The translations under genes and the position numbers were made by a program. A DNA stretch of 64,000 nt from contig CAYJKM010000002.1 of NCBI GenBank assembly GCA_964370805.1, positions 1,599-65,598 on the forward strand, given 5' to 3'. Under the pieces are notes generated by a model. It worked only from the letters and a program-made list of their open reading frames with translations, did not search any database and was not told the origin of the DNA. Every line of letters starts with the position of its first letter. Positions within the stretch are counted from its first letter, which is position 1. Of this stretch, positions 9,192 through 56,631 are shown piece after piece. Source of the DNA: an uncultured Alphaproteobacteria bacterium (GTDB taxonomy: Bacteria > Electryoneota > RPQS01).

Positions 9192-9221
9192 TTCGAGGCA
9201 GGACAACAGGTCCGGAGGTGC

Positions 9222-33214: not shown

Positions 33215-35215
33215 ATGTGGCACACAGTCATTGGAATTGATTTGGGAACTACGTACAGTGCGGTGGCCTCCTATCATGCTGGTCAGGAACAGGCGATGTT
33301 GATTGAAGACCATAATGAAGGGAACGCACTGACCACCCCTTCCGTAGTGGGATGGGATTCCGGCGCCGGCAGAGTCATTGTGGGGCGAACCGCCCGACGA
33401 ACCGTTCGTGCATTGCAGAAGCCGATCATCGAAATCAAGCGTGAAATGGGAGAAGTATTCGATGAGAAGTTGCTCGACCGCTTTAATGCCCGCGGGGTGT
33501 ACAATGTCGGCGACCCGGTCCGCGTCTTCTTTGCCGGCGAATGGCTGCTGCCGCAGGAGATTAGTGCGTTCACGCTGACCCGAATGCGGCAGATTGCTGA
33601 ACAGGAACTCCGTACGGAGATCCGGGACGCGGTGGTCACGGTTCCGGCCTATTTTACCGACAAACAAAAGAGTGCGACATATGAAGCGGCGCTGCTGGCA
33701 GGACTGTACCCGCGGCAGTTAATCGCAGAGCCGACGGCGGCGGCAATCTGTTACGGCGTGGACACGTGGAACCCTGACCGTCGAGTCTACCTGGTCTACG
33801 ATCTGGGCGGAGGCACATTTGATGTTTCGATTATCGAGGTGGAGGGCGAGCGGATTGATGTTATTGCCACGTCGGGGGACCGCCGCCTGGGCGGCAGCGA
33901 TTTCGATAACGCCATTACCGAATGGGCCATGAACGAGCTGAAGCGGGATGGATTGGACGTGCTGCAGGTTCCCGCAGGCAGGGAACTGCTCAAGCAGGCC
34001 GCGGAAGAGGCCAAGATCCTTCTCAGCTCGTATCAAGAGACGAAGCTGAATCTGGCAGAAGTCTATCCCAATCGGCCGCCGCAACTCATTTTGACCCGCG
34101 AGAAATTCCTGGAGCTGATTAATGCGGACCTGCGAAAGTCCCTGAGCTTTGTCGATGACGCGTTGGAGCGTGCGCAACATAATCGCAATATTGCCCGCGA
34201 GGACGTCTCGGCAGTACTTCTGGTGGGTGGATCAACACGGATTCCTAAAGTCCGCGAGATGCTCGCCGAACATTTTCTCAAAGATGCATCATTTGTGCGA
34301 GCCGATGCGGATCCTGACGCCGTGGTGGCGCGTGGCGCGGCTGTCGTAGCCCACCGGTTTGAGCCCACGCCGCCACCCTTCGACATTACCCGGCCAACGG
34401 ACGACGCGTCGAATATTCGACTGGCGGATGACGGCTTGGTGATCGGGCTAATTACGGAGCATTCGCTCGGCGTCGGGACTGCTAACCACGATCTCGTGGA
34501 CAAGATCGTCACTCAGGGCACCAGTATTCCGGTCACGGTGACCAAGAGCGGCTACACCAATTCGGGCCAGGGAAGCTATACCATGGTTCCCGTTTGTCAA
34601 GGCGAAGGCGATTACCTGCCGCAGAACACCAAAATCGGTGAATTAAAAATTGGGCCTCACGCCGCGTCTCCACCGGGAACGCATCAGTTTGAAGTAACCT
34701 TTGCGTTGGACGTGAATGGACTTTTGACGGTGAGCGTTCGTCACATCAATGAGAACAAGACGTACACAGATCAATACGTTCGCAAGACCAGCGTCGGCGG
34801 CCTGGCCGCGCTGGTTCCGCTTTACAACCGCATCCTTCGTTATTATTTTGGAGCCGGAGGCGCCACTGATTTGAACCTTCCGCCGCCACAGCTTGATGAT
34901 CACCGAGCCCCAACCGATGACTCCACCACGCCGCGGGAAACTCCGCCCTATCCGGGCACGGAGGGCAAGAGTCTTCCACGTCCCGGGGCAGCAGCTTCAC
35001 CCACGCTTGTTGAGGTTTCCGGAAATGTCCCGGAAGCTTTCAAGAGCCTTGTGCGGCGATCCCAGAAACTTCTGCTGTCCAAACTGGATGTTCAACTCGC
35101 GGAGCGCTTTAATCGGTTTGTCAGTGCGCTGAATGCGAGTGCATCCAACGAGAAGCTGGAGGAACTGGCTGACGAACTTGAGGATGCCTATCACGATGCC
35201 CGCACGCAGTCCTGA
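33215..35215 (+). CDS. Hsp70 (DnaK-like) paralog, non-housekeeping
   Basis: 666 aa. NBD motifs IGIDLGTTYSAVA, DLGGGTFDVSI and LLVGGSTRIPKV are present. The SBD-beta is recognisable (CQGEGDYLPQNTKIGELKIG...EVTFALDVNGLLTVS). The canonical lid is replaced by a Pro-rich divergent C-terminus. Confidence 0.8.
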   Translation: MWHTVIGIDLGTTYSAVASYHAGQEQAMLIEDHNEGNALTTPSVVGWDSGAGRVIVGRTARRTVRALQKPIIEIKREMGEVFDEKLLDRFNARGVYNVGDPVRVFFAGEWLLPQEISAFTLTRMRQIAEQELRTEIRDAVVTVPAYFTDKQKSATYEAALLAGLYPRQLIAEPTAAAICYGVDTWNPDRRVYLVYDLGGGTFDVSIIEVEGERIDVIATSGDRRLGGSDFDNAITEWAMNELKRDGLDVLQVPAGRELLKQAAEEAKILLSSYQETKLNLAEVYPNRPPQLILTREKFLELINADLRKSLSFVDDALERAQHNRNIAREDVSAVLLVGGSTRIPKVREMLAEHFLKDASFVRADADPDAVVARGAAVVAHRFEPTPPPFDITRPTDDASNIRLADDGLVIGLITEHSLGVGTANHDLVDKIVTQGTSIPVTVTKSGYTNSGQGSYTMVPVCQGEGDYLPQNTKIGELKIGPHAASPPGTHQFEVTFALDVNGLLTVSVRHINENKTYTDQYVRKTSVGGLAALVPLYNRILRYYFGAGGATDLNLPPPQLDDHRAPTDDSTTPRETPPYPGTEGKSLPRPGAAASPTLVEVSGNVPEAFKSLVRRSQKLLLSKLDVQLAERFNRFVSALNASASNEKLEELADELEDAYHDARTQS

Positions 35216-36704
35216 TCTTCCTCGCGAGTTGGACATTGACTTTATGGGTGACGGGCGCAAACGCGTGGTTCGTGTCGGTTCGGCCATGTGGGGTCACGTG
35301 TTCGCGGCAGAGCCAGAGCGCACGTTCTACCGGATTATTCCGTTGGCATACCTGCCAACTTGGGAGATGCGGCAAAAGGCTGTGGCTCTTGTCGGTCGCG
35401 ATCCGTTGCCGGGATTGCCGCGCTACCTGCGGGCGGAGCAAGTTACCATCGCGGACGATGACGGGTATTTTGTGATCGAGTATCAGGTGGTGTCCGCAAG
35501 CGCGCCAGCTTTCGACTTAGAGACGGCTGACCCGCTTCGCAGGCTGGAACGGGTGTGTGCAGTGATGAATGAGCTTGGGGCCTGGCGCCAGCGGTTGGAT
35601 CAGGCGCTCTTTCTCATGCCGTCGGATATTGTCTTCGTAGACAACATTCCCATCCTGCTGTTTACGCCGGATTGGGGGCTGCCGCCCCTTGACGCGATCT
35701 TTCAAGAGCCGATCCGATCCCGCTATCTGCCGCCGGAGGCCATCACGGGCAAGGATTCAATTCTCTGGCGTGGCAATAGCGACGTCTTTTCGCTGGGGAT
35801 GATCGCGCTGCAGTGTTTTTACACCCTTCCTCTTGCCGACGATTCTGAAACGGCGTTGATGCTTGCAGCAGCGGGTTCAGTCCCCGAACTGTCCAGTCAG
35901 CCGGGCACATTGCCTTACTGGATGTACAAGGCTCCGGGCTTGCAGGAGGCGCTGAAACTATTGTCCCGGACCGTTTCCTCTGCTCGCGTGCGCAGCGCCG
36001 TCGAACCCTTTTCGCTGGCCCGGTCGCTGAATCAATGCCGTACCCGCATGCTGCCGGAGCGCGCCGCCGAAGAACTGCGCCAGATGGGACAGTCGCGCGA
36101 GGCCTTCAACCTGCTTCATGATGCGATGCTGGTCCAAACCACGCATGAGCTTGCGTTACTGGCGGGCGAGATCGCGCTGCACGATCTGAATGATCCGCTG
36201 GAAGCCATTGACATTCTCGAAAAAGCCATCGAGCGGGATCACCATCGCGTCGCCGCTTACGTGCACCAGTTTGAGGCGATCAGCAAGCTGACTCGATTAC
36301 TCAATGAATTTCGGCTGCTTGAACAGGCTCCGTCCGCGCGAGAACGCATGGACGACCTGATCTGGCGCGACTTCAACCGGATGGACGCGGATCAGCAGCG
36401 GGATAATGAGGTCGCGATGAGTCGGTATTTTCTCTTTCGCCGTCAGTATGAGGCAGCGGCTCATTTTATCTTCCCGCGGTTGCGCATGGGCGCGACACAC
36501 ATGTGGTGGAAGTTTGACTTGAATCTCAATTACGTACGCGCATTGGCCGGGCAGCAGCGAATCGCCGAGGCGTCAGCGTTGCTGCGGTACGTTGCCGGCA
36601 AACTGGACTTTGCCCGCCAGGGCAAGACCCTGGCTCATCATGAAATCACGCGTTTAGATGCCGACGTGCGCGAACTGGCCGACCAACTGAGTGTCGAATT
36701 GTGA
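35184..36704 (+). CDS. Protein-kinase-like (probable pseudokinase) domain fused to helical/TPR-like C-terminal region
   Basis: About 507 aa. Kinase-like subdomains are degenerate: SDIVFVDN in place of HRD..N, DWG in place of DFG, YLPPEAITGK for the APE region, and DVFSLGMIALQCF for subdomain IX. Catalytic His/Arg/Lys are missing. It overlaps the Hsp70 stop. Confidence 0.45.
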   Translation: MPITMPARSPDLPRELDIDFMGDGRKRVVRVGSAMWGHVFAAEPERTFYRIIPLAYLPTWEMRQKAVALVGRDPLPGLPRYLRAEQVTIADDDGYFVIEYQVVSASAPAFDLETADPLRRLERVCAVMNELGAWRQRLDQALFLMPSDIVFVDNIPILLFTPDWGLPPLDAIFQEPIRSRYLPPEAITGKDSILWRGNSDVFSLGMIALQCFYTLPLADDSETALMLAAAGSVPELSSQPGTLPYWMYKAPGLQEALKLLSRTVSSARVRSAVEPFSLARSLNQCRTRMLPERAAEELRQMGQSREAFNLLHDAMLVQTTHELALLAGEIALHDLNDPLEAIDILEKAIERDHHRVAAYVHQFEAISKLTRLLNEFRLLEQAPSARERMDDLIWRDFNRMDADQQRDNEVAMSRYFLFRRQYEAAAHFIFPRLRMGATHMWWKFDLNLNYVRALAGQQRIAEASALLRYVAGKLDFARQGKTLAHHEITRLDADVRELADQLSVEL

Positions 36705-38545
36705 AGCACTTATGTTCTCGCATGTTTTCCTTCCGGCGGCTTGCAGCGTCTGCATTAATACTGTTGTGCCTGTTTTCATTGTCGCGCATCCGGGCTGCGG
36801 ATTCAACCCTCGGAATTCATTCCACGACACAGTCCGCGGACTCAATATGTGGATGCTGCGGCCGATCGCTCAAGACTGCCGCGCGGCTTTCCGATACCAC
36901 CCTTACCCCATTGCTGGAGCAGAGAGCCCGGCAGGTTGCAAGCCGGGAGCGATGGACAACCATACTGGCCGGGGCTGGACTGCTGGCCCTGGTCGTGTTC
37001 TATTTTGCAGTGCTGGTCCCACACCGTCGCCGCCGGCCTCTGACAGAGGCCCTGCGGCGGCTAACGGCTGCTTCACTCTCGGAAGCAGAACTTCAGGCCA
37101 TTGAATCGCTGTTGGATCGGGCTCTGACGGCCGGGTTGCGCCGAACCGATATCGCGGAGGTGCGCTTTCATCTGGCGTTTGTCCGAACACAACTCGGGCG
37201 GTACAAAGAAGCCTTGGGGGTGCTGAGTGACTTGAAGGGCGAGCCCAAACGGCGCAAGGAGATTGTCTATCTCGAACTGTATCTGCACTCCCGTCTGGAA
37301 GAGTATGTCGAGATGGAGCAGATTTTCGAGCAGCGCGGTAGTGTCCTCGATGGTTATCTAGACACCGCGCTGATGATGGGGATCGCGCTGCTGCATCTCG
37401 GGCGGCAAAACTGGAAACGGAGGGATATCGAGCAAGCCGTGCGCTATTTCGAGCGCGTCCGATCTCTGGGCGTATTGCTGGATGAAGTCCCTGCTAACGT
37501 CGGTGATCACCAGATTCTCCTCGGAGTGCTGGTCTTATTTGACAAGGATGTTGTCGGTGCACGAGCGCACTTCGACGGCGCGAAAACGTCGGCGGAAGCG
37601 AACACTGTCACGTCGTTGCAGGCCGAATTAGGGCTGCTGCTCTGCGATTGGATTTCCGAGGAGATGCCGGACATTGACGGCGGGCTGCTCCAAGCCGTAG
37701 GGATGATGGAGCAGCAATTCGGCTTCCCGCGCGATTCGCAACATGAAGGCGAAGCCGCTGACACCGCAGAGCATCTGGCCGGCGAGAATTTGGAGCGGCT
37801 TTATGTAGCGCTGCTGCTTTGGCATGCCGTCTCTTTGATTTACACGTGGTTCCGGCTTCCCGCGAAGACCCGACTGCCCGAGACAGAACTGAGACAACTG
37901 GATGAGCGCGTGGAAAAAGTAAAGCAGGCCGACCCAGAGCTCGGAGATCCATACCTAATCCAAGGATTAATCCGCTACTACTTTGCCACGGACAATGATT
38001 CCAAGTGGCGTGCGGTGGAGTGCTTGGACACGGCTGTTCAGAAAGGGGCCCAAGTCCCGGAGGTCATAAGTTTGGTCGCCAGCGAAAAGCGGCTGGATGA
38101 ACTGGAGCGCGACCGGCTCGGGCGATTCTTGGCGCTGGTAAAGTCATGGTTGTCCAATCGTACGGTGCCGGATTCGATTCGCCGCCATCTGCAGGAAGAG
38201 CTGGCGAGATTCGACCGCTTCCATGTGCTTCAAGATGTCGAAATAGCCGGGGCGGATGAAGATATCGAGCCGTCGGTAAAGGATATCCGGAATCGCAGCG
38301 AGATTGTTCGGAAGCGAGTGCAGACCATCATCGGACAACTCCTCAAAACCGCGGAAACGACAGAGGCCACGGCCATCAACGAGCATCTCACACAGATATC
38401 CTCCGAAACAACAAAGATTGAAGAAGCAGTGAAGCAACTCGACAATCTGGAAGGGGAACTCATGCTGCAGGCCGGGCAATTCCTTTTGAAAGAAGAAGAT
38501 GAGCTGCCGCCAATCCTGCCGCAAGCGGGGGAGTCCGAGCCATGA
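36701..38545 (+). CDS. Membrane-anchored TPR/helical-repeat protein, hypothetical
   Basis: 614 aa. N-terminal hydrophobic signal-like segment plus a TM helix (ILAGAGLLALVVFYFAVLV), then long alpha-helical repeats. ATGA overlap upstream. Confidence 0.45.
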   Translation: MKHLCSRMFSFRRLAASALILLCLFSLSRIRAADSTLGIHSTTQSADSICGCCGRSLKTAARLSDTTLTPLLEQRARQVASRERWTTILAGAGLLALVVFYFAVLVPHRRRRPLTEALRRLTAASLSEAELQAIESLLDRALTAGLRRTDIAEVRFHLAFVRTQLGRYKEALGVLSDLKGEPKRRKEIVYLELYLHSRLEEYVEMEQIFEQRGSVLDGYLDTALMMGIALLHLGRQNWKRRDIEQAVRYFERVRSLGVLLDEVPANVGDHQILLGVLVLFDKDVVGARAHFDGAKTSAEANTVTSLQAELGLLLCDWISEEMPDIDGGLLQAVGMMEQQFGFPRDSQHEGEAADTAEHLAGENLERLYVALLLWHAVSLIYTWFRLPAKTRLPETELRQLDERVEKVKQADPELGDPYLIQGLIRYYFATDNDSKWRAVECLDTAVQKGAQVPEVISLVASEKRLDELERDRLGRFLALVKSWLSNRTVPDSIRRHLQEELARFDRFHVLQDVEIAGADEDIEPSVKDIRNRSEIVRKRVQTIIGQLLKTAETTEATAINEHLTQISSETTKIEEAVKQLDNLEGELMLQAGQFLLKEEDELPPILPQAGESEP

Positions 38546-38790
38546 AGCTGATGCGCAAGCAGACTGTTCCTGCGAAGACGTGGTTGCTCGAGCAGCTTGA
38601 ACGCATCGAGTATCAGCGCAAGGACAGCCACGAAGAGATCCAGGCTGAGCAGATGAATCTCGCGGGTTCGTTGTTGCTCCTGACGGGTATCAACCATGAG
38701 CACGAATATGAGGTTTGCACTCAGCTCGCGTCCCATCTTCTCGAAAAGCTCCCGACTCCCAGGCTGAGCGATGAATTCGACGAAGAATAA
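38542..38790 (+). CDS. Small hypothetical protein (82 aa)
   Basis: ATGA overlap with the upstream gene. Acidic C-terminus and no recognisable motif. Confidence 0.35.
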   Translation: MKLMRKQTVPAKTWLLEQLERIEYQRKDSHEEIQAEQMNLAGSLLLLTGINHEHEYEVCTQLASHLLEKLPTPRLSDEFDEE

Positions 38791-38813: not shown

Positions 38814-40601
38814 ATGGCGAAGTTCAGCAAAAAGATGCCCGATCTTCTCGCCTCTGTGCCGGAATCGGTGCTAACCCCGGAGGCGCTGCCGGGCGCGCCG
38901 TCTTTCGAGGCGGAGCTGGATAAGCCCGCCGTCGATTTTCGGGCGGCCGTCGAGGCAATCTTTGAAGCGGCCCGCGCCGCACGCGACCCCGAGCAAGACA
39001 ACCGGCCGGTGCCGGCACCGGGTGCGGACGGCGGCATCGTCGTCGAAGCGGGGCCCGCCGGGGCAAAACCGGCCGCAGAGCAGGTGTTGGAAGAAGCCAA
39101 GCAACACATGGTCCGAAGCGAGTGGATGGAGGCGCTTGCTCTGCTGGCAAAGCTTCTGGCGACGGATCCACGGCACGGGGAAGCTCGCTATTTGCGAGCG
39201 TACTGTCAAGCCGCGTTGAACGAACCGAAGGAGGCGCTGCGCGAACTTGCATGGCTTGATGTGACGGCGGCAAGCAAAGCGCTTGCGGAACAGGCGATGG
39301 CTCTACGCGTGCACGTCCGCACGATCCTGCTGCTCGGCGCACTATACGAGTTGGTGATGTCCACTGATGCAGCCACCTCGAAGGGAATTCGCGAGTTAAA
39401 GCAACTTATCGAACTCGATCCGGAATGCGGACAATTCCACTTTTTGTTGTGCGCGCTTTATGTCAAAGAGAAGCGATTCAAGGAGGCATTGCGTGCGCTG
39501 GACGCTGCCGAGCAATTTGCCGATGCCGCCGCACACGAGGCCCTGGGACAAGCACGGCGCCAGATCCTCAGGCAGCACCTTGTCGAATTGTTGCAGCCGG
39601 CCGTGGAACAGTTCAAGCGGGAACGCTTTGCTGCCGCCCGGAAGGCTCTCGCGGCGGTGCCGGAATCGTATCGATCGCTTCCGCTGTTCGCTCGCTTTGA
39701 CCGCCACATCGCCACCTTCGAGCGTGGTCTGCTGGGCATCTTTCACCGCAAAGTCAGCAACTGGCGCCAGTCGGTGCCGGACTCCGGCCAGCGCGAGGAG
39801 TTGTATCAGCTCTTGGTCGGCACGGAGCTCGACCAAGCCAAGCAAGCCATTGCAGAGAAAAAATTCCCTGAGGCGGTCCAGAGCATGCGCAGTGCTCTGA
39901 CGTATGCGCCGGATTTCCCGCAGGCGCATTTTCTCTTAGCACTCGCGCTGCATAACGATTTGGGTCAACAGATTGGTACGCGTCGGCCGCCGCCGCCGAT
40001 TGAAACCGCGATTGCCGGTTTCGAGGAGGCTCTGCAGCATGCCCGACAAAGCACGACCGATGACCAAATCACGCTGGCGCGGCCGCTGGTTGATGCTATC
40101 GAAGACATTCTGGCCAAGCTTGGCGAGCAAAAGCTTGTCAACGATCTCCTGGCTTCCTTTCGCGAATTGGCGGAACGTCTTAAGCCCGGAATTCGGTCGG
40201 TGGAGGATCACCAATGGGCTTGCCGCAAGGTGAAAGAGCTGCGCGAGCGAATTCAGCGGGAATCGCCGCAGGTCCGGTCTGCCGATGCGGTGAAGAGCTT
40301 GAAGGAATTGGAAAAGGCCTGCGCGCACAGCGCATCGCAGCTTGAATCCATGAAGGGAGCCATCCGCGAAGCGGAGACGGTCAAAGCTCGCTATGAGGAG
40401 TTCAAGCAATGCATGGAAATCCTTAAAGCATTTCACGGACAATTGCCGCCCCAGGTTTTTTATCAGACCCGGCAGGATCTGCAGAACCTGCTCGAGAAAG
40501 TGAACAAAGATATCGCCCGCGCGGCGACGTCCGAAGCGCGGCGTGCTCTGCAGGAACTTCAGGCCGCGATCGCAACGACATTGTCTCATTTCGTCGGCTG
40601 A
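38814..40601 (+). CDS. TPR-like all-helical hypothetical protein
   Basis: 595 aa, Ala/Leu/Glu/Arg-rich helical repeats. It sits in the same operon between the membrane TPR protein and the TIR protein. Confidence 0.45.
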   Translation: MAKFSKKMPDLLASVPESVLTPEALPGAPSFEAELDKPAVDFRAAVEAIFEAARAARDPEQDNRPVPAPGADGGIVVEAGPAGAKPAAEQVLEEAKQHMVRSEWMEALALLAKLLATDPRHGEARYLRAYCQAALNEPKEALRELAWLDVTAASKALAEQAMALRVHVRTILLLGALYELVMSTDAATSKGIRELKQLIELDPECGQFHFLLCALYVKEKRFKEALRALDAAEQFADAAAHEALGQARRQILRQHLVELLQPAVEQFKRERFAAARKALAAVPESYRSLPLFARFDRHIATFERGLLGIFHRKVSNWRQSVPDSGQREELYQLLVGTELDQAKQAIAEKKFPEAVQSMRSALTYAPDFPQAHFLLALALHNDLGQQIGTRRPPPPIETAIAGFEEALQHARQSTTDDQITLARPLVDAIEDILAKLGEQKLVNDLLASFRELAERLKPGIRSVEDHQWACRKVKELRERIQRESPQVRSADAVKSLKELEKACAHSASQLESMKGAIREAETVKARYEEFKQCMEILKAFHGQLPPQVFYQTRQDLQNLLEKVNKDIARAATSEARRALQELQAAIATTLSHFVG

Positions 40602-40630: not shown

Positions 40631-42364
40631 ATGGATCAGCAACCCGCCGCTTACGACATTTTTATCAGCTACGCTCACGAAGACGCAGATTGGGTGAAGT
40701 CAAATCTCTACGAGCCGCTGCTCCGCTGCCGCACGGCCGAGAACCGGCGGCCCCGGGTATTTTTTGATGAAGACGGCGTCCTGCACGGCCATAGTTTCGT
40801 GGACGTACTGGCAAGCGCAATTCAGCACAGCTGCAGAGTGGTGCCCGTCTACTCCAAAGCCTATTTTCAGAGCGCCATGACAGAGTGGGAGTTGAAGAAG
40901 TTCTTTCAACGCGCGCCAACGAACGCGGACGGCGTCATCTGTCCGCTGCTGATCGAAGAAGATGCCGAACGGCAGATCTGGTTCTTCATTGATCACATTC
41001 AATACCGCCGCGTGATGCTCCATCCGGACTGGTTTCAGAATCTTGCCGCCACACTCGATTTGAGAATTGATGACGCCGCGCGGACATCGCTGCGTTTTAT
41101 CGAGGAGCCCTCGCCCGCGACCGTCAACCTCACGATGCCGCCCGTAAAAGTGGCCGTGACCGGCGATGGCCAGACCATGGACTATAACGACGAGATCTGC
41201 CTGGTCTCGGAAAAGGGGACGCTCCAGGGGACGACGGCCCAGCGCGCGCAAAACGGTCATGCTACCTTTAGAGATTTGTCCTTTCGCGAACCGCTGCAGG
41301 CGACGCGATTGATTGCTTTCTCCAGCGGTCACGAGGCGGCAATGAGTCAACCGTTTGACGTGATCACACCGCAGGAAATCGCGAGCAATGCGCAGCCGGG
41401 AGTCCCGATTGCGGCTCACGGCCAAGCTTTCTTCTTCGAAAACGGCCAGGCGCTGGCGGTGTTGGAGCAGAGTCACATCTCGATCTGGGACATCGCGGGC
41501 AATCGGCTGGGCCGGAAGGAAATTCAGGGCCATCCGCGTTTCATTCGATTTTCCGAAAGCCTTGCTGCAGTCGCGACGTGGGAAGGACAGGTTTACGTGC
41601 TCAATGCCGATGGCAGATGCTCTGATTATGGCCCGGCAGGTAACCACGTGAGTTCGTCACTGCGCGTGCCGGGGAGCATGATCATCCGGAACGAAGCCGC
41701 ATTCGTCGGCTACTGGAACGGTGAGATCATTCGGTTTGAGTTGGAAGGTAAGCAAGAGAAGTGTTTCGCGCATGACGCGGGCGTACAAGCGATGGCCATG
41801 GACGGAGATGCTGTCTACGTGGCGGGCTTGGATGCTCAGCTCAGTGTCTATCGGGGTGCCATGCAAGTGTTCAGTGCCCCGCTGGACCCCGTACTCCTTT
41901 TCATCAAAGTCTGGGAAGCGTGCGTGCTCATTGTAGGGCGTGAAAGGGTTTTCCGCTATGCACCGTTCGGCGGGCAAATTCACACAGTGACGGCGCCTGT
42001 ATCTCCCATTACTCAGGTTATCGAGGATGGCGAGTTTCTGATGCTCATGAACCGCGAGGGCACGGGCGTACGTTACGACTCTCAATTGGCCGTACGCGGC
42101 CGCTTCGCGACGACTCCCGGGGCAAAGCCGGTTGCTGTTTCCCGCCGCCACGGTACCAATTGCGCAGTGTTCACCTATCCGGATGGAACGAATGCTCTGC
42201 TCATCGGGCGACGCATCGTCTATTGTCAGGCCGGCGGCACCCTTGCACTGGCTCCGGAGGCTCGATTGATTGCCGTCGGCGGTCAACACGGCATCCGCAT
42301 ACTTGATGGAAGTCACCTGGATGAGCTGATTCAGGGAGGAGTACGTGAGGCTGCCGCCGACTAA
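40631..42364 (+). CDS. TIR-domain protein fused to beta-rich (propeller-like) C-terminal region
   Basis: 577 aa. N-terminal YDIFISYAHEDADWV...VPVYSKAYFQSAMTEWELKKFF is a clear TIR signature including a conserved Glu. The remaining roughly 420 aa shows repeated beta-strand blade-like segments (ISIWDIAGNRL, VYVLNADGR, IIRFELEG, IRILDGS). Confidence 0.7.
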   Translation: MDQQPAAYDIFISYAHEDADWVKSNLYEPLLRCRTAENRRPRVFFDEDGVLHGHSFVDVLASAIQHSCRVVPVYSKAYFQSAMTEWELKKFFQRAPTNADGVICPLLIEEDAERQIWFFIDHIQYRRVMLHPDWFQNLAATLDLRIDDAARTSLRFIEEPSPATVNLTMPPVKVAVTGDGQTMDYNDEICLVSEKGTLQGTTAQRAQNGHATFRDLSFREPLQATRLIAFSSGHEAAMSQPFDVITPQEIASNAQPGVPIAAHGQAFFFENGQALAVLEQSHISIWDIAGNRLGRKEIQGHPRFIRFSESLAAVATWEGQVYVLNADGRCSDYGPAGNHVSSSLRVPGSMIIRNEAAFVGYWNGEIIRFELEGKQEKCFAHDAGVQAMAMDGDAVYVAGLDAQLSVYRGAMQVFSAPLDPVLLFIKVWEACVLIVGRERVFRYAPFGGQIHTVTAPVSPITQVIEDGEFLMLMNREGTGVRYDSQLAVRGRFATTPGAKPVAVSRRHGTNCAVFTYPDGTNALLIGRRIVYCQAGGTLALAPEARLIAVGGQHGIRILDGSHLDELIQGGVREAAAD

Positions 42365-45300
42365 GGACTCGACGCGACTATCCGAGCGAATCAAATGGCT
42401 GGACGCACGGTGTCGTACGGAAGACAAGACCGCAACCGATATCGAGGCGCTGGCCGAAGCGCATTTCCGTTTTGCGCTTTGTCCGGACACCACGCCGGCG
42501 GAAACCGTTCGTCGTCTTCGCCGCGCTATCCGGCTCGATTCGACCAATCCCAAATTCCCTTACCATCTCGCGCGTGTGTTGTTGAGTCACGGCAAGCTCA
42601 GCGTGGCCTCCAAATGGATCAGGCGTGCCGCAGACCTCTGTCCGACCAGCCATCGCATTTGGACGCACGTGTGTCTCTTACAGCTTGAGCTCAATTTCCA
42701 ATACTACGGAGATCGAAAGTACGAACCCGATGACCTCCGCCGACGGGCATCACGGATTTTTGAGGCCGTGCGAAACGGGGAGGACGCAATTGACCGCGAG
42801 CTTCTGACGTTTAAGCCCCCGGAGAGTCGGGCATATCGCGAAGAGCGTATGCACCGGACAGACCATCACGCTCCCGAGGAAAGCCGGGCAGCGGTCAGCG
42901 CGGAGACAGTCGCAGAGGTGCCGAACGATGCTGGACTGAAGGATAGCGCGAAGTTGCTTCGCACAACGGTCAACAGAATGCTTGATCCGAGGCGTTGTCG
43001 CTGGAGTGGTCTGTATGAACTTGAGATCGAGTCACATCTTGAAGCGGAGGCAAACCAGGCCTCCGCTCATAAGATGCTGCCCCTGCTGCAACAAGTGGCG
43101 GCACTGGCGACCGCCTCACCGCGCCGCGCTGCATCCTTTGCAATTCTTGCCGTACAGTGGCTCGTCTGTGGATATCCGGTGCGAACCATCCGGGAGCTTT
43201 GCCCGCCTGATCCCGACGGGGCATCCAATCCTGCCGCGGAGCTTCTTGATCTTGTCTGTCGAATTCGCGAAGCAAAGGACTCCGACGTCCTCGCGATGCT
43301 GGCTCAGGCCGCGCGGACCGAAATGTTGCCGCCATATCTGATTGCTGCCCTGCACCGGCGATACGTGCTGGGTAGGAGCCTCGAGTTCAAGCTCTATTCG
43401 AGTTATCGCCGCATGCAGCGACAACTCAGGGCCCTGTCTCAGATTCCAGCCGGTACCGCCATGCCGGATGCATTGAAGCGGGAGGCCGGTGCCAGTGTGA
43501 AACGCGTGGAGCATGCCATCGAGTCGCTGAATGTCTCATCCTTCAAGACACTGGACAGCGACGACATATTCGCCGTGACGGAAGCTCTTTCGCCGGAGGA
43601 AGCATGCCGTCAACTAAAACGCCTAACCGATACTGCGGAACGCCTGAAAACACAATCCGACCGGCTGTTTGAATCTGCAAAAGCAGACAGCTCGTGGACC
43701 GGGGCGCAACTCCGCACAGCTCATGATATCATCCCTTTGCTCACGCGGAAGGCAGGGGAGGGACTGAGCGAACTTGACAAGATACAGGAGGGTTTGCGGG
43801 CCCTCGAACTATTGGAATGCCGTGCGGAGATCAGCACGCAGATTCAGCAATGTCAAAGAGTCTTCAGAGAAGTCGCAATGACCGGAAGGCTGAGCAAGGC
43901 ACTGCGGCGAATTGAGAAAGATCTAAATCTTACGCCTCCACTCGGCGAAGGCGACGACGAGCTGGAACGGCTGGAGTCTCGGGCCCGGGACATAACTCAG
44001 CGAATCCACGGGCGTCTTGCGGCGGCGCAAGAAGCCTTGACCATCTACCCACAAGACGTGCAGGTTGCGCCCCCCATAAGAAGACTTCGCGCGCTGATTG
44101 AGCAACAAGCTGCGGAAGCCCAGTATCGTCTTGGGCATCTCGATGTCGCTCGGCGGCTATGGTTGGAGATTCTCCGAACCGATGCCACGCATGTGTCTAT
44201 ACTGCGGAATCTCGCCGTAAGTGACTCCTGCAGCATGGATACCGGGCGGAGTTCCGCGTCCTGGTCACGTTACGCGGAAGCGCTGTATTACCTCGACGTC
44301 GTGGCCGGCGATCCCGTGTTGCATGCTAAGGAACGCGTCGACCTTCACCGGCAGATTGCCCGCGCGTACGGATCAACCTTCCTCAACAGCAAGCGCGACC
44401 CACGTTGGATCGACAGCATCGATGAGCGGGATGTGATTGCCGGCTTCACAAACGTCGCGCGCATCCGAGCCTATGCCAATCACCGGCTGCTCGAAGCGTT
44501 CAATGCCAAGCTGCTTTTCCGTAGCCCGGTGCTCTCCCTGGGTGTGGGAAGGACCGAATCGGCAGATCAGTTCGATGCGGCAAACCAACAGCTCCACGCA
44601 TTCGCCGAAGCCTGCCGATCCATGTTTCCGCCCCGGACGCGTGATTCGTTCGTCAAGCTGTGCCAAGACCATTTCGACCGAGCGCGTGACTCATGTCGAA
44701 AGGTCGACAGTCTGACGCTCCAGGCCGACCCCGGTTATGACGGAGAAAAAGATCGGCAGAAGGAATGGCTCGGAGACGTGCTCGACTTACGATACCGGTT
44801 GAGCGTTATCGGATCGGTCTGCAAAACGCTGGTCGGAAGCAGTGCACTAATCGGGTTGATTGAATTGGCTTTCCGGCTGGAAGAGATTCCGCTGGGTCTC
44901 AGTCGAACGCTTCTTGACGAGGTGGCACGGACGTTCGCTCCGCAAAACCCAGATCAATTTGTCGCCAACCTGAACCGGACGAGAGAATCATTGGTTGTTA
45001 ATCTGGCCGCGTACCTGTTCCGCGAGGATCATGATGCCGCCGACAGGAAGCAGCGAGATGTCCAATATCTTCGCCTGATCAACCGCTGGATCCGCAATCC
45101 CGCTCTGGAGAAGTATCTGCCTTTCCTCGATGATCCGGTGCAATTCTACTCTGAAGATATATCTTTCTGCGTTCAGAACGGGGCACGGTTTGCTTCCATG
45201 TCGGATACGGAGCGAAAAAAGTTCGAGCATGGAATGTCGGAACTACAACGGTGGTGCGACCACTGGCCGCATATCACGGGCCCGGCCCGGCGGCTTGGTC

Positions 45301-45422
45301 CTCTGCTGGCGATGGCAAAGAAACCGACGGCAGCCGTCGCGGTGTTAAAGAACGCCGAACAAAACGGTTTCTATTCTGAGGGAGTGGCGGAGTGCCGGTC
45401 ATTCCGAAAGCGCATTCAGTGA
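42345..45422 (+). CDS. Large (1025 aa) all-helical hypothetical protein with N-terminal TPR/Sel1-like repeats
   Basis: The start overlaps the TIR gene by 20 nt. No catalytic motif recognised. Last gene of the first island operon. Confidence 0.45.
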   Translation: MRLPPTKDSTRLSERIKWLDARCRTEDKTATDIEALAEAHFRFALCPDTTPAETVRRLRRAIRLDSTNPKFPYHLARVLLSHGKLSVASKWIRRAADLCPTSHRIWTHVCLLQLELNFQYYGDRKYEPDDLRRRASRIFEAVRNGEDAIDRELLTFKPPESRAYREERMHRTDHHAPEESRAAVSAETVAEVPNDAGLKDSAKLLRTTVNRMLDPRRCRWSGLYELEIESHLEAEANQASAHKMLPLLQQVAALATASPRRAASFAILAVQWLVCGYPVRTIRELCPPDPDGASNPAAELLDLVCRIREAKDSDVLAMLAQAARTEMLPPYLIAALHRRYVLGRSLEFKLYSSYRRMQRQLRALSQIPAGTAMPDALKREAGASVKRVEHAIESLNVSSFKTLDSDDIFAVTEALSPEEACRQLKRLTDTAERLKTQSDRLFESAKADSSWTGAQLRTAHDIIPLLTRKAGEGLSELDKIQEGLRALELLECRAEISTQIQQCQRVFREVAMTGRLSKALRRIEKDLNLTPPLGEGDDELERLESRARDITQRIHGRLAAAQEALTIYPQDVQVAPPIRRLRALIEQQAAEAQYRLGHLDVARRLWLEILRTDATHVSILRNLAVSDSCSMDTGRSSASWSRYAEALYYLDVVAGDPVLHAKERVDLHRQIARAYGSTFLNSKRDPRWIDSIDERDVIAGFTNVARIRAYANHRLLEAFNAKLLFRSPVLSLGVGRTESADQFDAANQQLHAFAEACRSMFPPRTRDSFVKLCQDHFDRARDSCRKVDSLTLQADPGYDGEKDRQKEWLGDVLDLRYRLSVIGSVCKTLVGSSALIGLIELAFRLEEIPLGLSRTLLDEVARTFAPQNPDQFVANLNRTRESLVVNLAAYLFREDHDAADRKQRDVQYLRLINRWIRNPALEKYLPFLDDPVQFYSEDISFCVQNGARFASMSDTERKKFEHGMSELQRWCDHWPHITGPARRLGPLLAMAKKPTAAVAVLKNAEQNGFYSEGVAECRSFRKRIQ

Positions 45423-45637
45423 CCTTGATGAAGATCACACAGTCGATTGTTTGTGCGCTTTGCAGCGCTCGTGAAAGATGGGCAGGACATGAGATTTTCG
45501 ATCATGCCTTGCCATCCAGAAAGGCGTGATCAAAAGTGTGATGCGATCGTAGCAGCCCTGGAGCGATTCTCTCACACAGGCAAAATAACCGGTGTGTTCT
45601 GCAAGGCAGCTTCATCAGCTGCCCTATTCATTTACTG

Positions 45638-45901
45638 ATGTCCAGCCGGTGGGATCTTGGCGGAATCATGCTGAATCCAATGCCGCACGAGGTCCGCGAG
45701 GACGACCAGCTTGTTGACCTGACGTTGATGGAGTTTCGGATCCTGATGGCACTCGTCTTGCGACCGGGTCGGGTCTTCTCCCGCGAACAGACTCAGTTAG
45801 CTGAATCGAGGTCCTCACACCGACTCGCAGAAAAAGCCGATCCGCTGTCCAACGATAACATCCATATTTACAACATTTTTCGTATAATTCTTCGTGACTG
45901 A
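45638..45901 (+). pseudogene. Remnant of an OmpR/PhoB-type response-regulator DNA-binding (winged-helix) domain
   Basis: The 87-aa ORF contains LTLMEFRILMALVLRPGRVFSREQ, matching the trans_reg_C recognition helix region. There is no receiver domain. It sits in an AT-richer ORF-poor seam (45423-46533). Confidence 0.35.
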
Positions 45902-46533: not shown

Positions 46534-47034
46534 TTGGCCATGAGTTTCTGGCGAGAAACCGAGTTTGTCGGGCGCGTCGTTTCGGTGCCTGAGGTCTACG
46601 AGTTTCAGTCGCGCCCGCAGAGCGGACAAACCGGCAGCGTACGCCGCTTAATGTTTCGTCTGGAAGAACCTTCCGGCCGAGTTTGGGCCGTGCGTTACGA
46701 AGGACCCATTGAGGGCAGCCTGCAGCTTGGTGACTTGATCGCTGTGTTTGGTTACACCCGCGCCCACGGTACGATTCGCGCCACGCGAATCTTTCATGAC
46801 GGCGGCGCTCGACCCGTCCGTATCACCGGCATGAGCCGGATGTGCCTTTTGGCGCTGGTTTGCACGCGCTGCCCGGGACTATTGCTGCCGTTCTACGCAG
46901 TGCGAGATTCACTGCTCTCCCGTAGTCACGTCGGACGATACGTCATCTCCCGCTACTATCAAATCAGTCAAACCCTCTGCCTGCTCTGGTTGGATCTTGC
47001 TATAGACCCGCACACAGATGGCACGCGAGCCTGA
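46534..47034 (+). CDS. Hypothetical protein (166 aa)
   Basis: First ORF after the AT-rich seam and overlaps the next gene's start. Hydrophobic C-terminal segment. No motif recognised. Confidence 0.3.
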   Translation: MAMSFWRETEFVGRVVSVPEVYEFQSRPQSGQTGSVRRLMFRLEEPSGRVWAVRYEGPIEGSLQLGDLIAVFGYTRAHGTIRATRIFHDGGARPVRITGMSRMCLLALVCTRCPGLLLPFYAVRDSLLSRSHVGRYVISRYYQISQTLCLLWLDLAIDPHTDGTRA

Positions 47035-49927
47035 GCGCATTCACAAGCGGTTTGCGGATTTGAAGCCGACTCAGGAGCCTGAGCCGGATTTTGTCGCGGC
47101 GCGTCGCATACTGCTGAGGGGCGATTCACCATCGCCGCCCGATGCCGCATTCCCCGTGCAGCACGACGAAAGAGGATGGTGGCGCATCCGCGAATGTGCG
47201 GTCGCCATGGATCCGGCTAATCCCGAAACGGAAGCCCTTGCGGGGTCGTGGTTGCCGGTGTTGGCGCAACGCGAGCGGCCGGTGACGTTGGCTCTGAGCC
47301 GCCTGTCGTCAGAATACGTACTTGCGGTAAGTGAATCACCGCACGGTGAAGCAACGCGTCTGGCTTTGGAAAGCGCGTATCCCGGCATCGTGCTCGCGCC
47401 GTGGTCACCGCCACGCTTGAGCGGCGGCGCGTGGGGGCGGATAACCGGAATTCCGGCCGCCGATCACAAACCCGCTCAACTGCCGCTCAACCGAATCCTT
47501 GACAGCTCATTATCCGTTGATTTTGTGCTGTGGGTGCAGCTCGTGCCGCTGTCGTCAGGCGAGATGGTGTCGCTGGTCGAGCAGCTTAAGCGCGCGGAAG
47601 CGCTGGCCCGCCGTTACGCGTCCGGAACGCTAACGATCTCGCAGCAACAAGCGAGTCTGCGGAGTGTGAGCGAGCAGCGCGATCAGGCGAACGCCGAAGC
47701 GGCGCTGTTTCTTGATCAGGTCACGCGTGCCTTGAAACGCATGCAAAATGGACTGGCAACGGGTTTGTGGCGTTGGAGCGGAGTGCTCTGGGCGCCGACC
47801 CGTTCACTTTGTGATCAACTGGGTGGTTTATGCCGCGGACTCTGGGGAAGCACAACGTCGGAAGGCGAAACCGTGGAATACGCTCCCATACGGCTTGCAT
47901 CTTCCACCGTGAGCACCGGCAGTATCGTGCAGATCCCTGCAAGCCAATCCGTCGGCGATACCCCGTCCATTCAGTCCATTGTCACGTCGGACGAATTGCG
48001 AAGCGTGAGCCACCTGCCCACTCGCGACGCCCCCGGTTACACAACATATCCGCTGGTACGCTTTGCTACGGCTGTGATGAGTGTACCCGCCGGAGCGGCA
48101 GCTGTAAACGTGGGAACGGTGCTGGACATCTCGCGGGAGACCGGACTCTCCTGGTCACTGACGTTAAGCGCCCTGACGCACCATTGTTTTGTCACCGGCA
48201 CCACCGGCTCGGGCAAAAGCAATACCTGCCGTTATCTACTCGAGCAGCTGCATGCTCATGGCATTCCGTTTTGGGTACTGGAGCCGGCCAAACGCGAGTA
48301 TCGCAGCCTGCTCAAGCACCGCGCACTGCGCGACCGCGTGCGAGTCTACACGCCGGGCAACGAGCGGGTTGCCCCGTTGCGCTTGAATCTGTTTCAGCCT
48401 CCGGCCGGCACGCTGCTGTCTGAGTGGATTGGCGGCTTGAAAACAGTCATTTCGAGCAGTTTTGCTTTGTATGGATCTATGCCGCAATTGCTCGAACGGT
48501 CGCTGTACCAAGCCTATGAGGAGCAGGGGTGGAATACGGCGCGCGACGTGGTCTCGGCGAAAGAGTCGCGTGCGTTTCCGACATTGACGTCCTTCGTTGC
48601 CACTCTGACGACGGTCATAGATGAAGCCGGGTATGGCCGCGAACTTTCGGCCGACTTTCACGGCGCGCTTACCACGCGCATCCGAAGCTTGACATTAGGC
48701 AGTACCGGGGCGATGCTTAACTCAACGGTTCGCTGTGACGTGCGCGAGCTGCTGTGCTATCCCACGATCTTTGAATTCGCATCGGTCACGAACGATCAGG
48801 AGCTGTCGCTGCTGATGGGGGTGTTGCTGTTAAATCTCGCCGCCGTGCGACGCAGCGACGGGTCAAGCGCAAACCTGAAGCACCTGCTCGTATTGGAGGA
48901 AGCGCATCGCCTGTTGCCGGCATTGGGGCCGCTTGCCGAGACCAGCGAAGTGGCGCAAACGCGAAGCCAGGCCGTCAACCTGTTCGTGAATATGCTTGCC
49001 GAGCTGCGTGCATCAGGGCAGGGCTTTGTTCTGGCCGATCAATCGCCGGAGAAAATCGTCAGCGACGCTTTGAAGAACACTGGCACCAAGATCGTCCATC
49101 GTTTGCCGGATCTTCCTGACCGGAACGCAGTCGGCAATACCATGGCGCTTACGGCTATCCAGAAAACCGCGCTGGCGCGACTGAACAAAGGGGCGGCGGT
49201 TGTTTATACGGAAGGCCCCACTCCGGCCGCGCTGGTGCATGTACCGCTGATGCTAACGCTGCCGCCTGTGACGGATGAAGAGATCCGCAAGAGCATGGCT
49301 CCGCATCTGCTCGTGGAGCAGACCGCTTCTGCCGGCCCGGCCTTGTCAGCGAAGATCACAACGCCCGAACGACCGGAACAAAGCGAGACGGGATTGTTTC
49401 GCGGCGTGGAGTTGCTGCGCTGCTTGCTTTCCGGCAAGACCCCTGATGACCTGCAGCCGGATCAAGTCCGTCAGTACGTCGCCGACCGCGCTGCATTTTT
49501 GCGGATCGAAACGGGGGAAGCTGATCGGCTTCAACATCTGCTCTTGGATGCCGCTGATCGAACATTGACAAATGACCAGAACAGGCGGGCCTGGGAGCAG
49601 TTTGCGGCCGACATGTCCCGGCTGATGCTGGCGAAGCGCCACGAGCAAACCCGCTGCGCGGATTGCCCGTCGCATGTTTGCTATGGCGCAGAGACGGAAG
49701 GCATGATGGCTTCCGTAGCCTGGTGGCAAGCCCTGCGTCAATCGCTGGAGAGCGGCGATGCCGCCGCTCTGCGCGAATTCTCGACGGCAGTTGCGCATCA
49801 TCCGGACATGACCATGGATTCATCGACGGAACCTGTGCGCAGCGCACTCGTGCGGTGTCTGGGCATCCGCGTGCTCGCGGAGTTTGACTTTGCCGAACCA
49901 TGGGCCACATTCAACCGGTTAGGATAG
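47018..49927 (+). CDS. HerA/FtsK-superfamily P-loop ATPase (DUF87-like) with long N- and C-terminal extensions
   Basis: 969 aa. Walker A in the HerA-typical context HHCFVTGTTGSGKSNTC, then WVLEPAKREYRSL (HerA DPHGEY-like). Walker B HLLVLEEAHRLLP, and IVHRLPD (Arg-finger-like). Confidence 0.65.
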   Translation: MAREPERIHKRFADLKPTQEPEPDFVAARRILLRGDSPSPPDAAFPVQHDERGWWRIRECAVAMDPANPETEALAGSWLPVLAQRERPVTLALSRLSSEYVLAVSESPHGEATRLALESAYPGIVLAPWSPPRLSGGAWGRITGIPAADHKPAQLPLNRILDSSLSVDFVLWVQLVPLSSGEMVSLVEQLKRAEALARRYASGTLTISQQQASLRSVSEQRDQANAEAALFLDQVTRALKRMQNGLATGLWRWSGVLWAPTRSLCDQLGGLCRGLWGSTTSEGETVEYAPIRLASSTVSTGSIVQIPASQSVGDTPSIQSIVTSDELRSVSHLPTRDAPGYTTYPLVRFATAVMSVPAGAAAVNVGTVLDISRETGLSWSLTLSALTHHCFVTGTTGSGKSNTCRYLLEQLHAHGIPFWVLEPAKREYRSLLKHRALRDRVRVYTPGNERVAPLRLNLFQPPAGTLLSEWIGGLKTVISSSFALYGSMPQLLERSLYQAYEEQGWNTARDVVSAKESRAFPTLTSFVATLTTVIDEAGYGRELSADFHGALTTRIRSLTLGSTGAMLNSTVRCDVRELLCYPTIFEFASVTNDQELSLLMGVLLLNLAAVRRSDGSSANLKHLLVLEEAHRLLPALGPLAETSEVAQTRSQAVNLFVNMLAELRASGQGFVLADQSPEKIVSDALKNTGTKIVHRLPDLPDRNAVGNTMALTAIQKTALARLNKGAAVVYTEGPTPAALVHVPLMLTLPPVTDEEIRKSMAPHLLVEQTASAGPALSAKITTPERPEQSETGLFRGVELLRCLLSGKTPDDLQPDQVRQYVADRAAFLRIETGEADRLQHLLLDAADRTLTNDQNRRAWEQFAADMSRLMLAKRHEQTRCADCPSHVCYGAETEGMMASVAWWQALRQSLESGDAAALREFSTAVAHHPDMTMDSSTEPVRSALVRCLGIRVLAEFDFAEPWATFNRLG

Positions 49928-56615: not shown

Positions 56616-56631
56616 ACGGGAAGGAGAACCC

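Follow-up and report, generated by a model that had tools for sequence, protein, structure and literature searches.

TIR domains have a central place in the immunity of organisms as distant as bacteria and humans, and for each system the key question is how their enzymatic activity is held off and turned on. In the oligomerisation-activated TIR NADases, such as SARM1, AbTir, TIR-STING, TIR-APAZ/SPARTA, TIR-Avs, and the plant TNL proteins, an N-terminal TIR domain with a glutamate in helix alpha-C is joined to a C-terminal assembly module. The same plan is shared by a protein of 577 amino acids (aa) encoded, from an ATG start, at positions 40631-42364 (+ strand) of the window, i.e., the whole stretch of 64,000 nucleotides (nt) analysed here, which is part of contig CAYJKM010000002.1 (GenBank assembly GCA_964370805.1, forward-strand positions 1,599 to 65,598) from an uncultured Alphaproteobacteria bacterium (GTDB lineage Electryoneota; RPQS01). 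This protein carries a TIR domain, an immunoglobulin (Ig)-like domain, and a beta-propeller, and is an obligate member, at a fixed position, of a conserved unit of 8-10 genes (the cassette). The latter is apparently a system so far undescribed, organised around an Hsp70 and TPR scaffolds, to which the TIR-Ig-propeller protein always belongs. The open reading frame (ORF) is as described in a first-pass annotation made from the DNA letters, whose interpretation of a TIR domain with a catalytic-type glutamate fused to a propeller-like sensor is partly supported: the architecture and the conserved glutamate hold, and the conserved unit with its obligate TIR protein goes beyond what was seen there.

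In the oligomerisation-activated enzymes and in the window protein alike, the expected output is cleavage of nicotinamide adenine dinucleotide (NAD+) with growth arrest, here predicted from sequence. The window protein differs from them in being devoid of a STING, APAZ/Argonaute, STAND NTPase, ARM, or SAM partner and in the replacement of the WxxxE tryptophan by methionine; moreover, unlike in known TIR NADases, its control module is split between a cis part, made of the Ig-like domain and the eight-bladed propeller, and a trans part, the Hsp70/TPR set. In the mechanism proposed below, the protein would work like the TIR effectors of STAND/Avs, SPARTA, and MoxR-vWA systems, with an Hsp70 triad instead of a STAND, AAA+, or GTPase switch. 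A STAND/NLR-like (Avs) assignment was rejected, as no Walker A, NB-ARC, or NACHT was found and a domain of about 100 aa, Ig-like, lies between TIR and propeller.

Chaperone- and NTPase-thresholded conflict systems with TIR effectors were described by Kaur, Burroughs, Iyer, and Aravind in 2020 (PMC7159879) and include MoxR-vWA ternary systems and DO-GTPase-GAP1 systems; in about 14% of the GAP1-N2-type DO-GTPase-GAP1 systems, HSP70 and GrpE together with DnaJ- or TPR-fused proteins are present as an accessory theme (PMC7159879). The cassette shares with these systems a constant NTP-driven core associated with death-type effectors (TIR, caspase-like), the joint presence of HSP70, GrpE, J-domain, and TPR proteins, and a preference for bacteria of complex or multicellular habit. 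In contrast, it contains no MoxR, vWA, DO-GTPase, or P-loop; its Hsp70 is the core and not an accessory, and its effector is essentially fixed (TIR in 21/21 loci) and not highly variable. A DO-GTPase-GAP1 system (PMC7159879) was therefore rejected on the lack of a P-loop and of any GTPase family match, GAP1 being without a model in the libraries used. A second parallel, of a conceptual kind, is offered by a 2025 preprint in which lid-less DnaK-like domains are fused to EACC1-protease death modules and the chaperone is suggested to sense misfolded or phage proteins (PMC12642450). In both cases a cell-death module is linked with a relative of Hsp70 that has no lid; however, the EACC1 case is a direct protease/EACC1-DnaK fusion, whereas the cassette has a separate Hsp70 gene, J-like and GrpE-like partners, a TIR effector, and no detected EACC1. 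In plants, HSP90-SGT1-RAR1 is an ATP-driven chaperone with TPR co-chaperones that controls the stability or activation of the TIR-NLR immune proteins; the likeness is by analogy only, plant NLR chaperoning being due to Hsp90 and the cassette encoding an Hsp70 and no NLR.

Thoeris, of which types I-XI are distinguished (10.64898/2025.12.03.692087), shares with the cassette a bacterial TIR in a multigene operon, and the window TIR has a distant likeness to ThsB-type and SLATT-associated TIRs. Nevertheless, Thoeris is a 2-gene operon in comparison to the 8-10 genes found here, and the TIR of the cassette is fused to the Ig-propeller half. The first-pass annotation had already judged the layout to be unlike ThsA/ThsB, and in fact no SIR2/SLOG/Macro effector was detected in the cassette. 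Thoeris as such was rejected because an adjacent signal-receptor effector is missing and the model scores are low (ThsB1 E=0.0045; type III ThcB4 18 bits vs 220), and CBASS was rejected because none of the cassette proteins matches SMODS/CD-NTase in Pfam, PADLOC, or NCBIfam.

The TIR domain covers aa 8-145 (40652-41065, +), as indicated by Pfam TIR_2 and by the beta-alpha fold of an AlphaFold2 (AF2) model, in which its predicted local distance difference test score (pLDDT) is about 85-94. Over aa 10-126 the Pfam models TIR_2 (PF13676; E=8.1e-14, 52.6 bits vs a cut-off of 28) and TIR (PF01582; E=5.7e-8, 33.2 bits vs a cut-off of 21.3) both match; by these scores, far above chance, the protein is assigned to the TIR superfamily. 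A family profile built from 21 full-length homologues, 30-36% identical and all of 560-600 aa, matches the solved TIR domains of TLR6/2/1, TRR-2, RUN1, MyD88, TcpB, and AbTIR, among which RUN1 and AbTIR are both NADases. The bacterial TIR domain of the first-pass annotation is borne out by the TIR_2 match and by these structures, except for its end, which had been placed at nt 40930 and which the fold carries to about aa 145 (nt ~41065). Neither a signal peptide nor a transmembrane helix was found in the protein, which is therefore expected to be cytoplasmic.

The characteristic motifs of the domain are DIFISYAHED (aa 9-18) and SAMTEWELKKF (aa 81-91), nt 40874-40903 being translated as AMTEWELKKF. 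The second one contains E87 (nt 40889-40891, +), located in helix alpha-C and aligned to the glutamate of the TLR2 'WCKYEL' motif; its column is, as we take it from established alignments, that of the catalytic glutamate of enzymatic TIRs (SARM1 E642, RUN1 E100). The alignments confirm that this residue is conserved, as previously noted, since it is kept in 21/21 profile homologues, 43/43 genomic homologues, and 107/109 divergent representatives, the latter being less than 50% identical to one another. In the same 109 representatives D9, S13, D46, S75, E87, P105, and W134 are each kept in at least 93% of cases. The conserved alpha-C glutamate of NAD+-cleaving TIR enzymes is, by alignment, present in the window protein, for which NAD+ cleavage is the predicted output.

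The C-terminal fold prediction that had been proposed for the protein was run with AF2 on the family alignment (mean pLDDT 86.8) and gives four parts: the TIR fold (aa 8-145), an Ig-like domain (aa 150-248), a propeller (aa 255-560), and a terminal helix. The repeat-rich beta domain of about 420 aa first annotated does contain a beta-propeller but in the model is made of two domains. The first is a bacterial Ig-like beta-sandwich (41078-41374, +), with eight predicted strands at aa 152-245. The second is an eight-bladed propeller of BamB/PQQ type (41393-42310, +), followed by the C-terminal helix at aa 560-575; AF2 places 32 strands in 8 groups of 4 at aa 258-559. Foldseek against the PDB retrieves BamB, the designed eight-bladed Tako8/Ika8/Cake8, and Fbw7 (E~1e-13, target-normalised template-modelling score (TM-score) 0.5-0.7; 0.58-0.70 for BamB, Tako8, and Cake8), and the sequence profile matches Cake9/10 (E~1e-12) and the PQQ propeller 3hxj. 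On this modelled fold the domain is a member of the eight-bladed PQQ/BamB-like propellers. BamB has the same fold and blade number; however, it is a lipoprotein of the periplasm and belongs to the machine for outer-membrane assembly, while the window propeller, with no signal peptide and with TIR and Ig domains fused to it, is predicted to be cytoplasmic and is only about 13% identical to BamB.

Homologues share on average a pairwise identity of 0.50 in the TIR, 0.42 in the Ig-like domain, and 0.43 in the propeller, which indicates similar evolutionary rates. The idea that the propeller acts as a sensor is unsupported: its rate of evolution is close to that of the TIR and Ig domains, and this is as compatible with docking onto invariant partners as with the sensing of a ligand. 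Separately, giant proteins of 1300-7100 aa (representatives P0036-P0048 and similar) are built from the Ig-like domain in 12-52 tandem copies and match Big_1, Invasin_D3, and Glyco_hydro2_C5.

The cassette genes all lie on the + strand, with gaps or overlaps of at most 30 nt except at the uncertain start of p523, and follow the order J-like, GrpE-like (sometimes absent), Hsp70, kinase-like/TPR, membrane TPR-like, ~80-aa, TPR, M48 (sometimes present), TIR-Ig-propeller, and giant TPR scaffold. The Hsp70-headed operon of the first-pass annotation is confirmed, with the addition that GrpE-like and J-domain-like genes precede the Hsp70 gene. The Hsp70 is divergent (33215-35215, +) and matches PF00012 with E=3.5e-106 over profile positions 1-491 of 599; it comprises the nucleotide-binding domain and the beta substrate-binding domain, and in place of the canonical lid it has a Pro-rich linker plus a helical tail peculiar to the family. 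Its scores with the equivalog models of DnaK (345 bits vs 648) and HscA (303 vs 709) are both below cut-off, and on these profiles it is a member of the Hsp70 family that is neither DnaK nor HscA but a separate Hsp70 paralogue. The ATPase motifs DLGTTYS, DLGGGTFD, and LVGGSTRIP are kept in 38 orthologues, and the Hsp70 is present in every locus reaching far enough upstream.

Two putative co-chaperones are encoded before it. The first cassette gene, u182 (31860-32408, +), is J-domain-like but lacks the HPD motif that J-domain proteins carry between helices II and III: its family profile matches DNAJA1 (E=4.4e-5), DnaJ2, and E. coli DnaJ over profile positions 10-74, the Pfam DnaJ match is merely E=0.025, and the HPD column is replaced ('ARG', 'RRA') in all 36 orthologues. 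By this alignment u182 is a J-like protein and not a canonical J-protein; in 35 loci it lies directly upstream of GrpE/Hsp70. Its C-terminal domain (aa 144-181) carries the near-invariant motif 'HPxD...TR.DFT.DF' (H160, P161, D163, R166, F169). The next gene encodes a GrpE-like nucleotide-exchange factor (32412-33203, +; Pfam GrpE E=1.2e-10, NCBIfam GrpE models far below cut-offs), which is found only in non-actinobacterial cassettes (7 genome loci; L086, L094, L096; L107) and is absent in the actinomycete versions.

Downstream of the Hsp70, p523 (35133-36704, +, with a true start probably at Met18, nt 35184) combines a kinase-like N-terminal domain, assigned from weak profile matches and motifs, with C-terminal TPR-like repeats. 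In particular, its profile gives weak matches in the PDB to kinase C-lobes (IRAK4 E=0.017, RIPK4, PknE, Chk2) besides TPR matches, and weak matches to the PADLOC MkoA and NCBIfam MAD6 kinases; the family motifs are G.G.WG, PADIV, and L.PE, and HRD, DFG, and VAIK are missing, so that the kinase-like domain is probably inactive (a pseudokinase). The protein is conserved in 39 loci. The following p614 (36701-38545, +) is a putative single-pass membrane protein with one hydrophobic helix (aa 85-103) followed by a conserved basic P.RWR. Its large C-terminal domain is helical and TPR-like, with weak matches to TPR_2 and TPR_6, and is probably cytoplasmic; the protein is conserved in 41 loci at about 30-36% identity. 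Its stop overlaps by 4 nt the small p82 (38542-38790, +), which has an acidic C-terminus (DEFDEE) and no family match in Pfam and NCBIfam scans, and is conserved at the same position in at least 24 loci. The TPR protein p595 (38814-40601, +; Pfam TPR_19 E=9.6e-11, TPR_16 E=6.4e-9), with a coiled-coil-like C-terminal half, was detected by tblastn in 14 genome loci, and in actinomycetes its slot is taken by a diverged 678-aa TPR equivalent (e.g., L016 7919-9955).

The last gene, p1025 (42345-45422, +), overlaps the TIR gene by 20 nt and is therefore probably translationally coupled to it. It encodes a giant all-alpha TPR/helical scaffold: the profile matches only TPR proteins in the PDB, the AF2 model (4 sequences, pLDDT 70) is wholly helical, and Foldseek retrieves the TPR scaffolds Ski3, IFT-A, Ctr9, and Naa15 with low TM-scores. 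The gene is directly downstream of the TIR gene in every locus. None of the nine cassette proteins of the window has a Walker A/P-loop motif, which leaves the Hsp70 as the sole cassette NTPase. In most cassette versions the TIR is the sole other enzyme-type domain, joined in some by CHAT or M48, and the remaining parts are repeat/scaffold proteins, four of them with TPR or helical repeats and one membrane-anchored. Scans of the cassette proteins with Pfam, PADLOC, NCBIfam, and PDB profiles detected no nucleotide-receptor domain (SLOG, Macro, SAVED, STING). The promoter and terminator scan gave nothing above shuffled expectation; about 180 nt past the p1025 stop there is a hairpin resembling a terminator (45605-45623).

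A genome scan with the TIR family found the full-length homologue in 42 loci of KSB1, Chloroflexia, Planctomycetota, Desulfobacterota/Deltaproteobacteria, Pseudomonadota, one Bacillota metagenome-assembled genome, and many Actinomycetota, and tblastn with the window proteins showed that these loci preserve gene content and gene order as far as each contig extends. When p1025 was used as an anchor in a metagenome scan, the TIR-propeller gene was directly upstream in 21/21 loci and the Hsp70 was present wherever sequence was available. A role of the TIR as a swappable effector was rejected on this count, and the TIR gene is therefore a fixed cassette member. The total amounts to about 60 loci in at least 6 phyla, with unrelated flanks; among Streptomyces, only some species carry the cassette. 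Approximately 100 of the best 150 clusters (50% identity) from a library of 1.84 billion proteins are full-length family members.

The variation of the cassette is by additions only. In 6 independent loci of one cassette subclade, p595 and the TIR gene are separated by a gene for an M48-type HExxH metallopeptidase of 288 aa (L007 9064-9930; also L010/L087, L011, L012, L043, L088; Pfam Peptidase_M48 E=1.2e-8), which is absent from the window. An N-terminal caspase-like CHAT domain, with the 'GHG' His and the 'NAC' Cys present, precedes the TIR in two representatives, P0119 and P0137, and the CHAT-TIR-Ig-propeller P0137 (L107 10001-12307) was confirmed inside a cassette. One representative, P0163, carries an N-terminal DUF4145 and is the sole member in which the glutamate is replaced, by Val. 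Single in-frame stops occur in cassette genes of five loci (L006 4391-5950, L021 6250-8331, L026 5995-7869, L008 1390-2019, L011 6743-7126) and may reflect pseudogenisation, assembly errors, or an artefact of coordinate projection.

The 125 ORFs beside the cassette in about 50 loci were clustered and scanned against Pfam and PADLOC. Almost none of them recur, and they are ordinary metabolic or regulatory genes; it follows from this lack of recurrence that the cassette is sharply delimited and travels as one piece. The patchy distribution across at least 6 phyla, together with the conserved synteny and the unrelated flanks, points to horizontal transfer of an accessory module. The cassette is a sharply bounded chromosomal accessory unit of patchy distribution and is not demonstrably resident in defence islands.

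Taken as a whole, the cassette looks like a chaperone-controlled cell-death or immunity module, and the reading that we favour, with a confidence a little short of even, is that the 577-aa protein cleaves NAD+ and is thereby the output of a horizontally spread conflict cassette gated by Hsp70 and scaffolded by TPR proteins. The Ig-propeller half would dock the TIR protein on the TPR scaffolds, one of which is predicted to be membrane-anchored, with p1025 as the likeliest partner, and in the docked state the N-terminal TIRs would be held apart and inactive. The dedicated Hsp70, with the J-like protein as targeting factor and the GrpE-like protein as exchange factor, would constitute an ATP-driven switch; the encounter of the Hsp70 with a trigger (a foreign or aberrant protein, or proteotoxic stress) would lead to the remodelling of the complex, and the freed TIRs could pack head-to-tail. 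In other TIR enzymes, head-to-tail packing of the TIR domains builds a composite active site. The assembled TIRs would then cleave NAD+, and its depletion would determine growth arrest or death as in abortive infection. An ADP-ribose-derived signal is a less likely outcome than depletion, which is favoured because of the lack of a detectable nucleotide-receptor domain in the cassette. We count in favour of this Hsp70-gated output the strict conservation of E87, the cassette synteny, the dedicated co-chaperones, the conserved Hsp70 ATPase motifs, the CHAT fusion and M48 insertion as effector-type additions at the same place of the cassette, and the fact that the lone Glu-to-Val member, P0163, has gained a DUF4145. 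To these we add the TIR assignment itself, the sharp cassette limits, the Hsp70 as sole NTPase, the conflict-type neighbours in the window (SLATT, RelA/SpoT-RyR, and HerA-like), and the precedent, established in comparative genomics, of TIR-bearing conflict systems under chaperone or NTPase control (PMC7159879).

Several observations weigh against it. The tryptophan of the WxxxE motif, which is conserved in SARM1, plant TIRs, and AbTir and contributes to the NAD+ pocket, is by alignment not present: its position is occupied by Met in the window protein and by M/N/I/Y/V in the family (Met in 66/109 representatives), and Trp is frequent in the family at position -1 to the glutamate, unlike the WxxxE Trp at -4. 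The first-pass description of a 'textbook' TIR holds for the fold and the glutamate but not for this tryptophan, replaced by Met, Val, or Ile in the family. Among solved structures, the TIRs closest in sequence are of the non-enzymatic TLR type, phmmer of the PDB with the TIR domain alone gives only TLR2/15, and the hhalign alignment to the SARM1 TIR, made with an approximate query sequence, covers beta-A to beta-C and ends at residue 86, before alpha-C. As for the switch, the absence of HPD in u182 makes a classical stimulation of the Hsp70 ATPase doubtful, and the kinase-like assignment of p523 is weak, coming from weak profile matches and motifs. The propeller is not hypervariable and hence bears no arms-race signature; the flanks show no enrichment in defence genes, with 2 of 125 ORFs being extra TIR proteins and a handful matching defence models, and no relatives were found on the viral contigs or plasmids searched. 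Finally, in every member the conflict role and the NAD+ cleavage are read from sequence.

The part assigned to the chaperone can be put in more specific terms, possible yet doubtful at present, as a switch for innate immunity or cell death based on Hsp70: a lid-less Hsp70 with its J-like adaptor and GrpE would replace the STAND, MoxR, or GTPase switch, sense foreign or aberrant clients, and license TIR (and, in some variants, CHAT or M48) effectors held on TPR scaffolds tethered to the membrane. A similarly tentative example of such clients is given by phage proteins whose normal habit is to exploit DnaK.

Among the explanations that compete with an Hsp70-gated NADase, the one that survives best, and which we nonetheless regard as unlikely, is a Thoeris-like mechanism in which the TIR, through the strictly conserved E87, makes an ADP-ribose-derived messenger (a cyclic ADP-ribose (cADPR) isomer, histidine-ADP-ribose, or similar) that is read by a cassette TPR protein or by a SLATT protein encoded upstream. 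The latter (581 aa; 27234-28979, +) has two predicted membrane helices and a C-terminal SLATT_1/DUF4231, and its gene lies 11 kb upstream of the TIR gene; its N-terminal domain (aa 28-260) contains 'GVTGHR...SLADGADRLVA', which by eye resembles SLOG/YpsA, a likeness that is unconfirmed and that counts to this extent against a messenger-binding role. The closest TIR-only relatives in the genome scan, proteins of about 580 aa with a C-terminal TIR found in about 12 Eremiobacterota/Vulcanimicrobiota loci, are each encoded divergently from a homologue of the window SLATT protein that shares its N-terminal domain (L057, L059, L062, L064, L066-L068, L071, L072, L076, L078; in L072, which was checked, 6936-8693 (-) and 8735-10480 (+)). 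TIR and SLATT pairs are putative Thoeris types, and a TPR domain has been proposed as the cADPR sensor of ThsI (10.64898/2025.12.03.692087), the cassette itself having four TPR/helical-repeat proteins. However, no SLATT homologue occurs within 10 kb of the cassette in about 60 other loci, the cassette proteins are without a detected signal-binding domain, the Thoeris models score poorly (ThcB4 18 bits vs the 220 cut-off; ThsB E=0.0045), and the SLATT protein has its own likely partner in the adjacent RelA/SpoT-type synthetase.

It is improbable, in our estimate, that the cassette is a non-conflict module for proteostasis, stress/dormancy, or development, in which the Hsp70 would assemble a membrane-associated TPR complex and the TIR would tune NAD+ or signalling on endogenous cues. 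The ordinary metabolic and regulatory flanks without defence-island enrichment, the solely chromosomal location, the similar and moderate rates of the components (propeller included, none hypervariable), and the prominence in actinomycetes, Chloroflexia, and planctomycetes, bacteria with complex lifestyles, are consistent with it, as are the Myxococcus DnaK paralogues with their own GrpE that serve social behaviour and oxidative stress (PMC11019930). On the other hand, a sporadic presence over at least 6 phyla with conserved synteny and unrelated flanks, the restriction to some Streptomyces species, the fusion or insertion of CHAT, M48, and DUF4145, typical of effector shuffling in conflict systems, and the position of the window cassette among other conflict-type genes argue for a conflict role.

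Equally improbable is a non-catalytic TIR, i.e., an assembly module as in TLR/MyD88 that would nucleate or stabilise the TPR/Hsp70 complex, with a structural glutamate; the output, a proposal of the same low probability, would then come from membrane perturbation by p614, from CHAT/M48 where present, or from Hsp70 sequestration. The best solved-structure matches (TLR2/6/1, TRR-2, and MyD88, which carry the glutamate too), the missing WxxxE tryptophan, the Glu-to-Val change tolerated in one member, and the propeller and Ig domains as typical interaction modules are in line with such an adaptor, but one TIR gene per cassette leaves no obvious homotypic TIR partner, 107/109 conservation at one acidic residue plus D9, S13, D46, and S75 is an active-site pattern, and the tested bacterial TIRs are overwhelmingly NAD+-processing (10.64898/2025.12.03.692087).

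In the window, the cassette is located between conflict-type genes, with the SLATT and RelA/SpoT-RyR genes upstream and a HerA-like ATPase downstream. The RelA/SpoT-type nucleotide synthetase (803 aa; 29317-31728, +) has a C-terminal RyR domain and, with the SLATT protein, looks like a separate pair of nucleotide-signal and membrane-effector genes. RyR-domain proteins are also encoded a few kb from the cassette in L012 (18098-20683, -), L041 (17295-19511, +), and L007 (~16200-16660, -) and near TIR-only genes in L060, L073, and L085, a recurrence that echoes the RelA/SpoT-RyR gene beside the window cassette. Just past the cassette, an 87-aa ORF (45638-45901, +) matches only the start of the OmpR-type Trans_reg_C (E=6.8e-5) and is possibly a gene remnant. 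It is followed by a HerA/DUF87-type ATPase of 969 aa (47018-49927, +; PADLOC mad8 E=1.9e-15 and several HerA models), by a ClpB-like AAA_2 ATPase (52532-54568, +) that overlaps the gene of a small radical-SAM/4Fe-4S protein (54565-55230, +), and then by the genes of a PP2C phosphatase and an 828-aa Ser/Thr kinase, which share the span 55755-59118 (+); additional modules with a conflict or regulatory role may be represented by these downstream genes.

No description of the cassette was found in the literature searched and no dedicated model for the family in PADLOC and NCBIfam; in addition, a systematic 2025 survey of TIR systems makes no mention of Hsp70, chaperones, or propellers (10.64898/2025.12.03.692087). 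The cassette ties a private Hsp70 machine and four TPR/helical scaffolds to a TIR in about 60 loci of at least 6 phyla. If the Hsp70 is the sensor or switch, the recognition of clients by Hsp70 would be the trigger, a new principle in prokaryotic immunity. In that case the immune sensors of prokaryotes would gain a new class, the cassette would be the bacterial equivalent of the chaperone-guarded TIR immunity of plants, and it would provide a tractable bacterial model for the chaperone control of TIR signalling.

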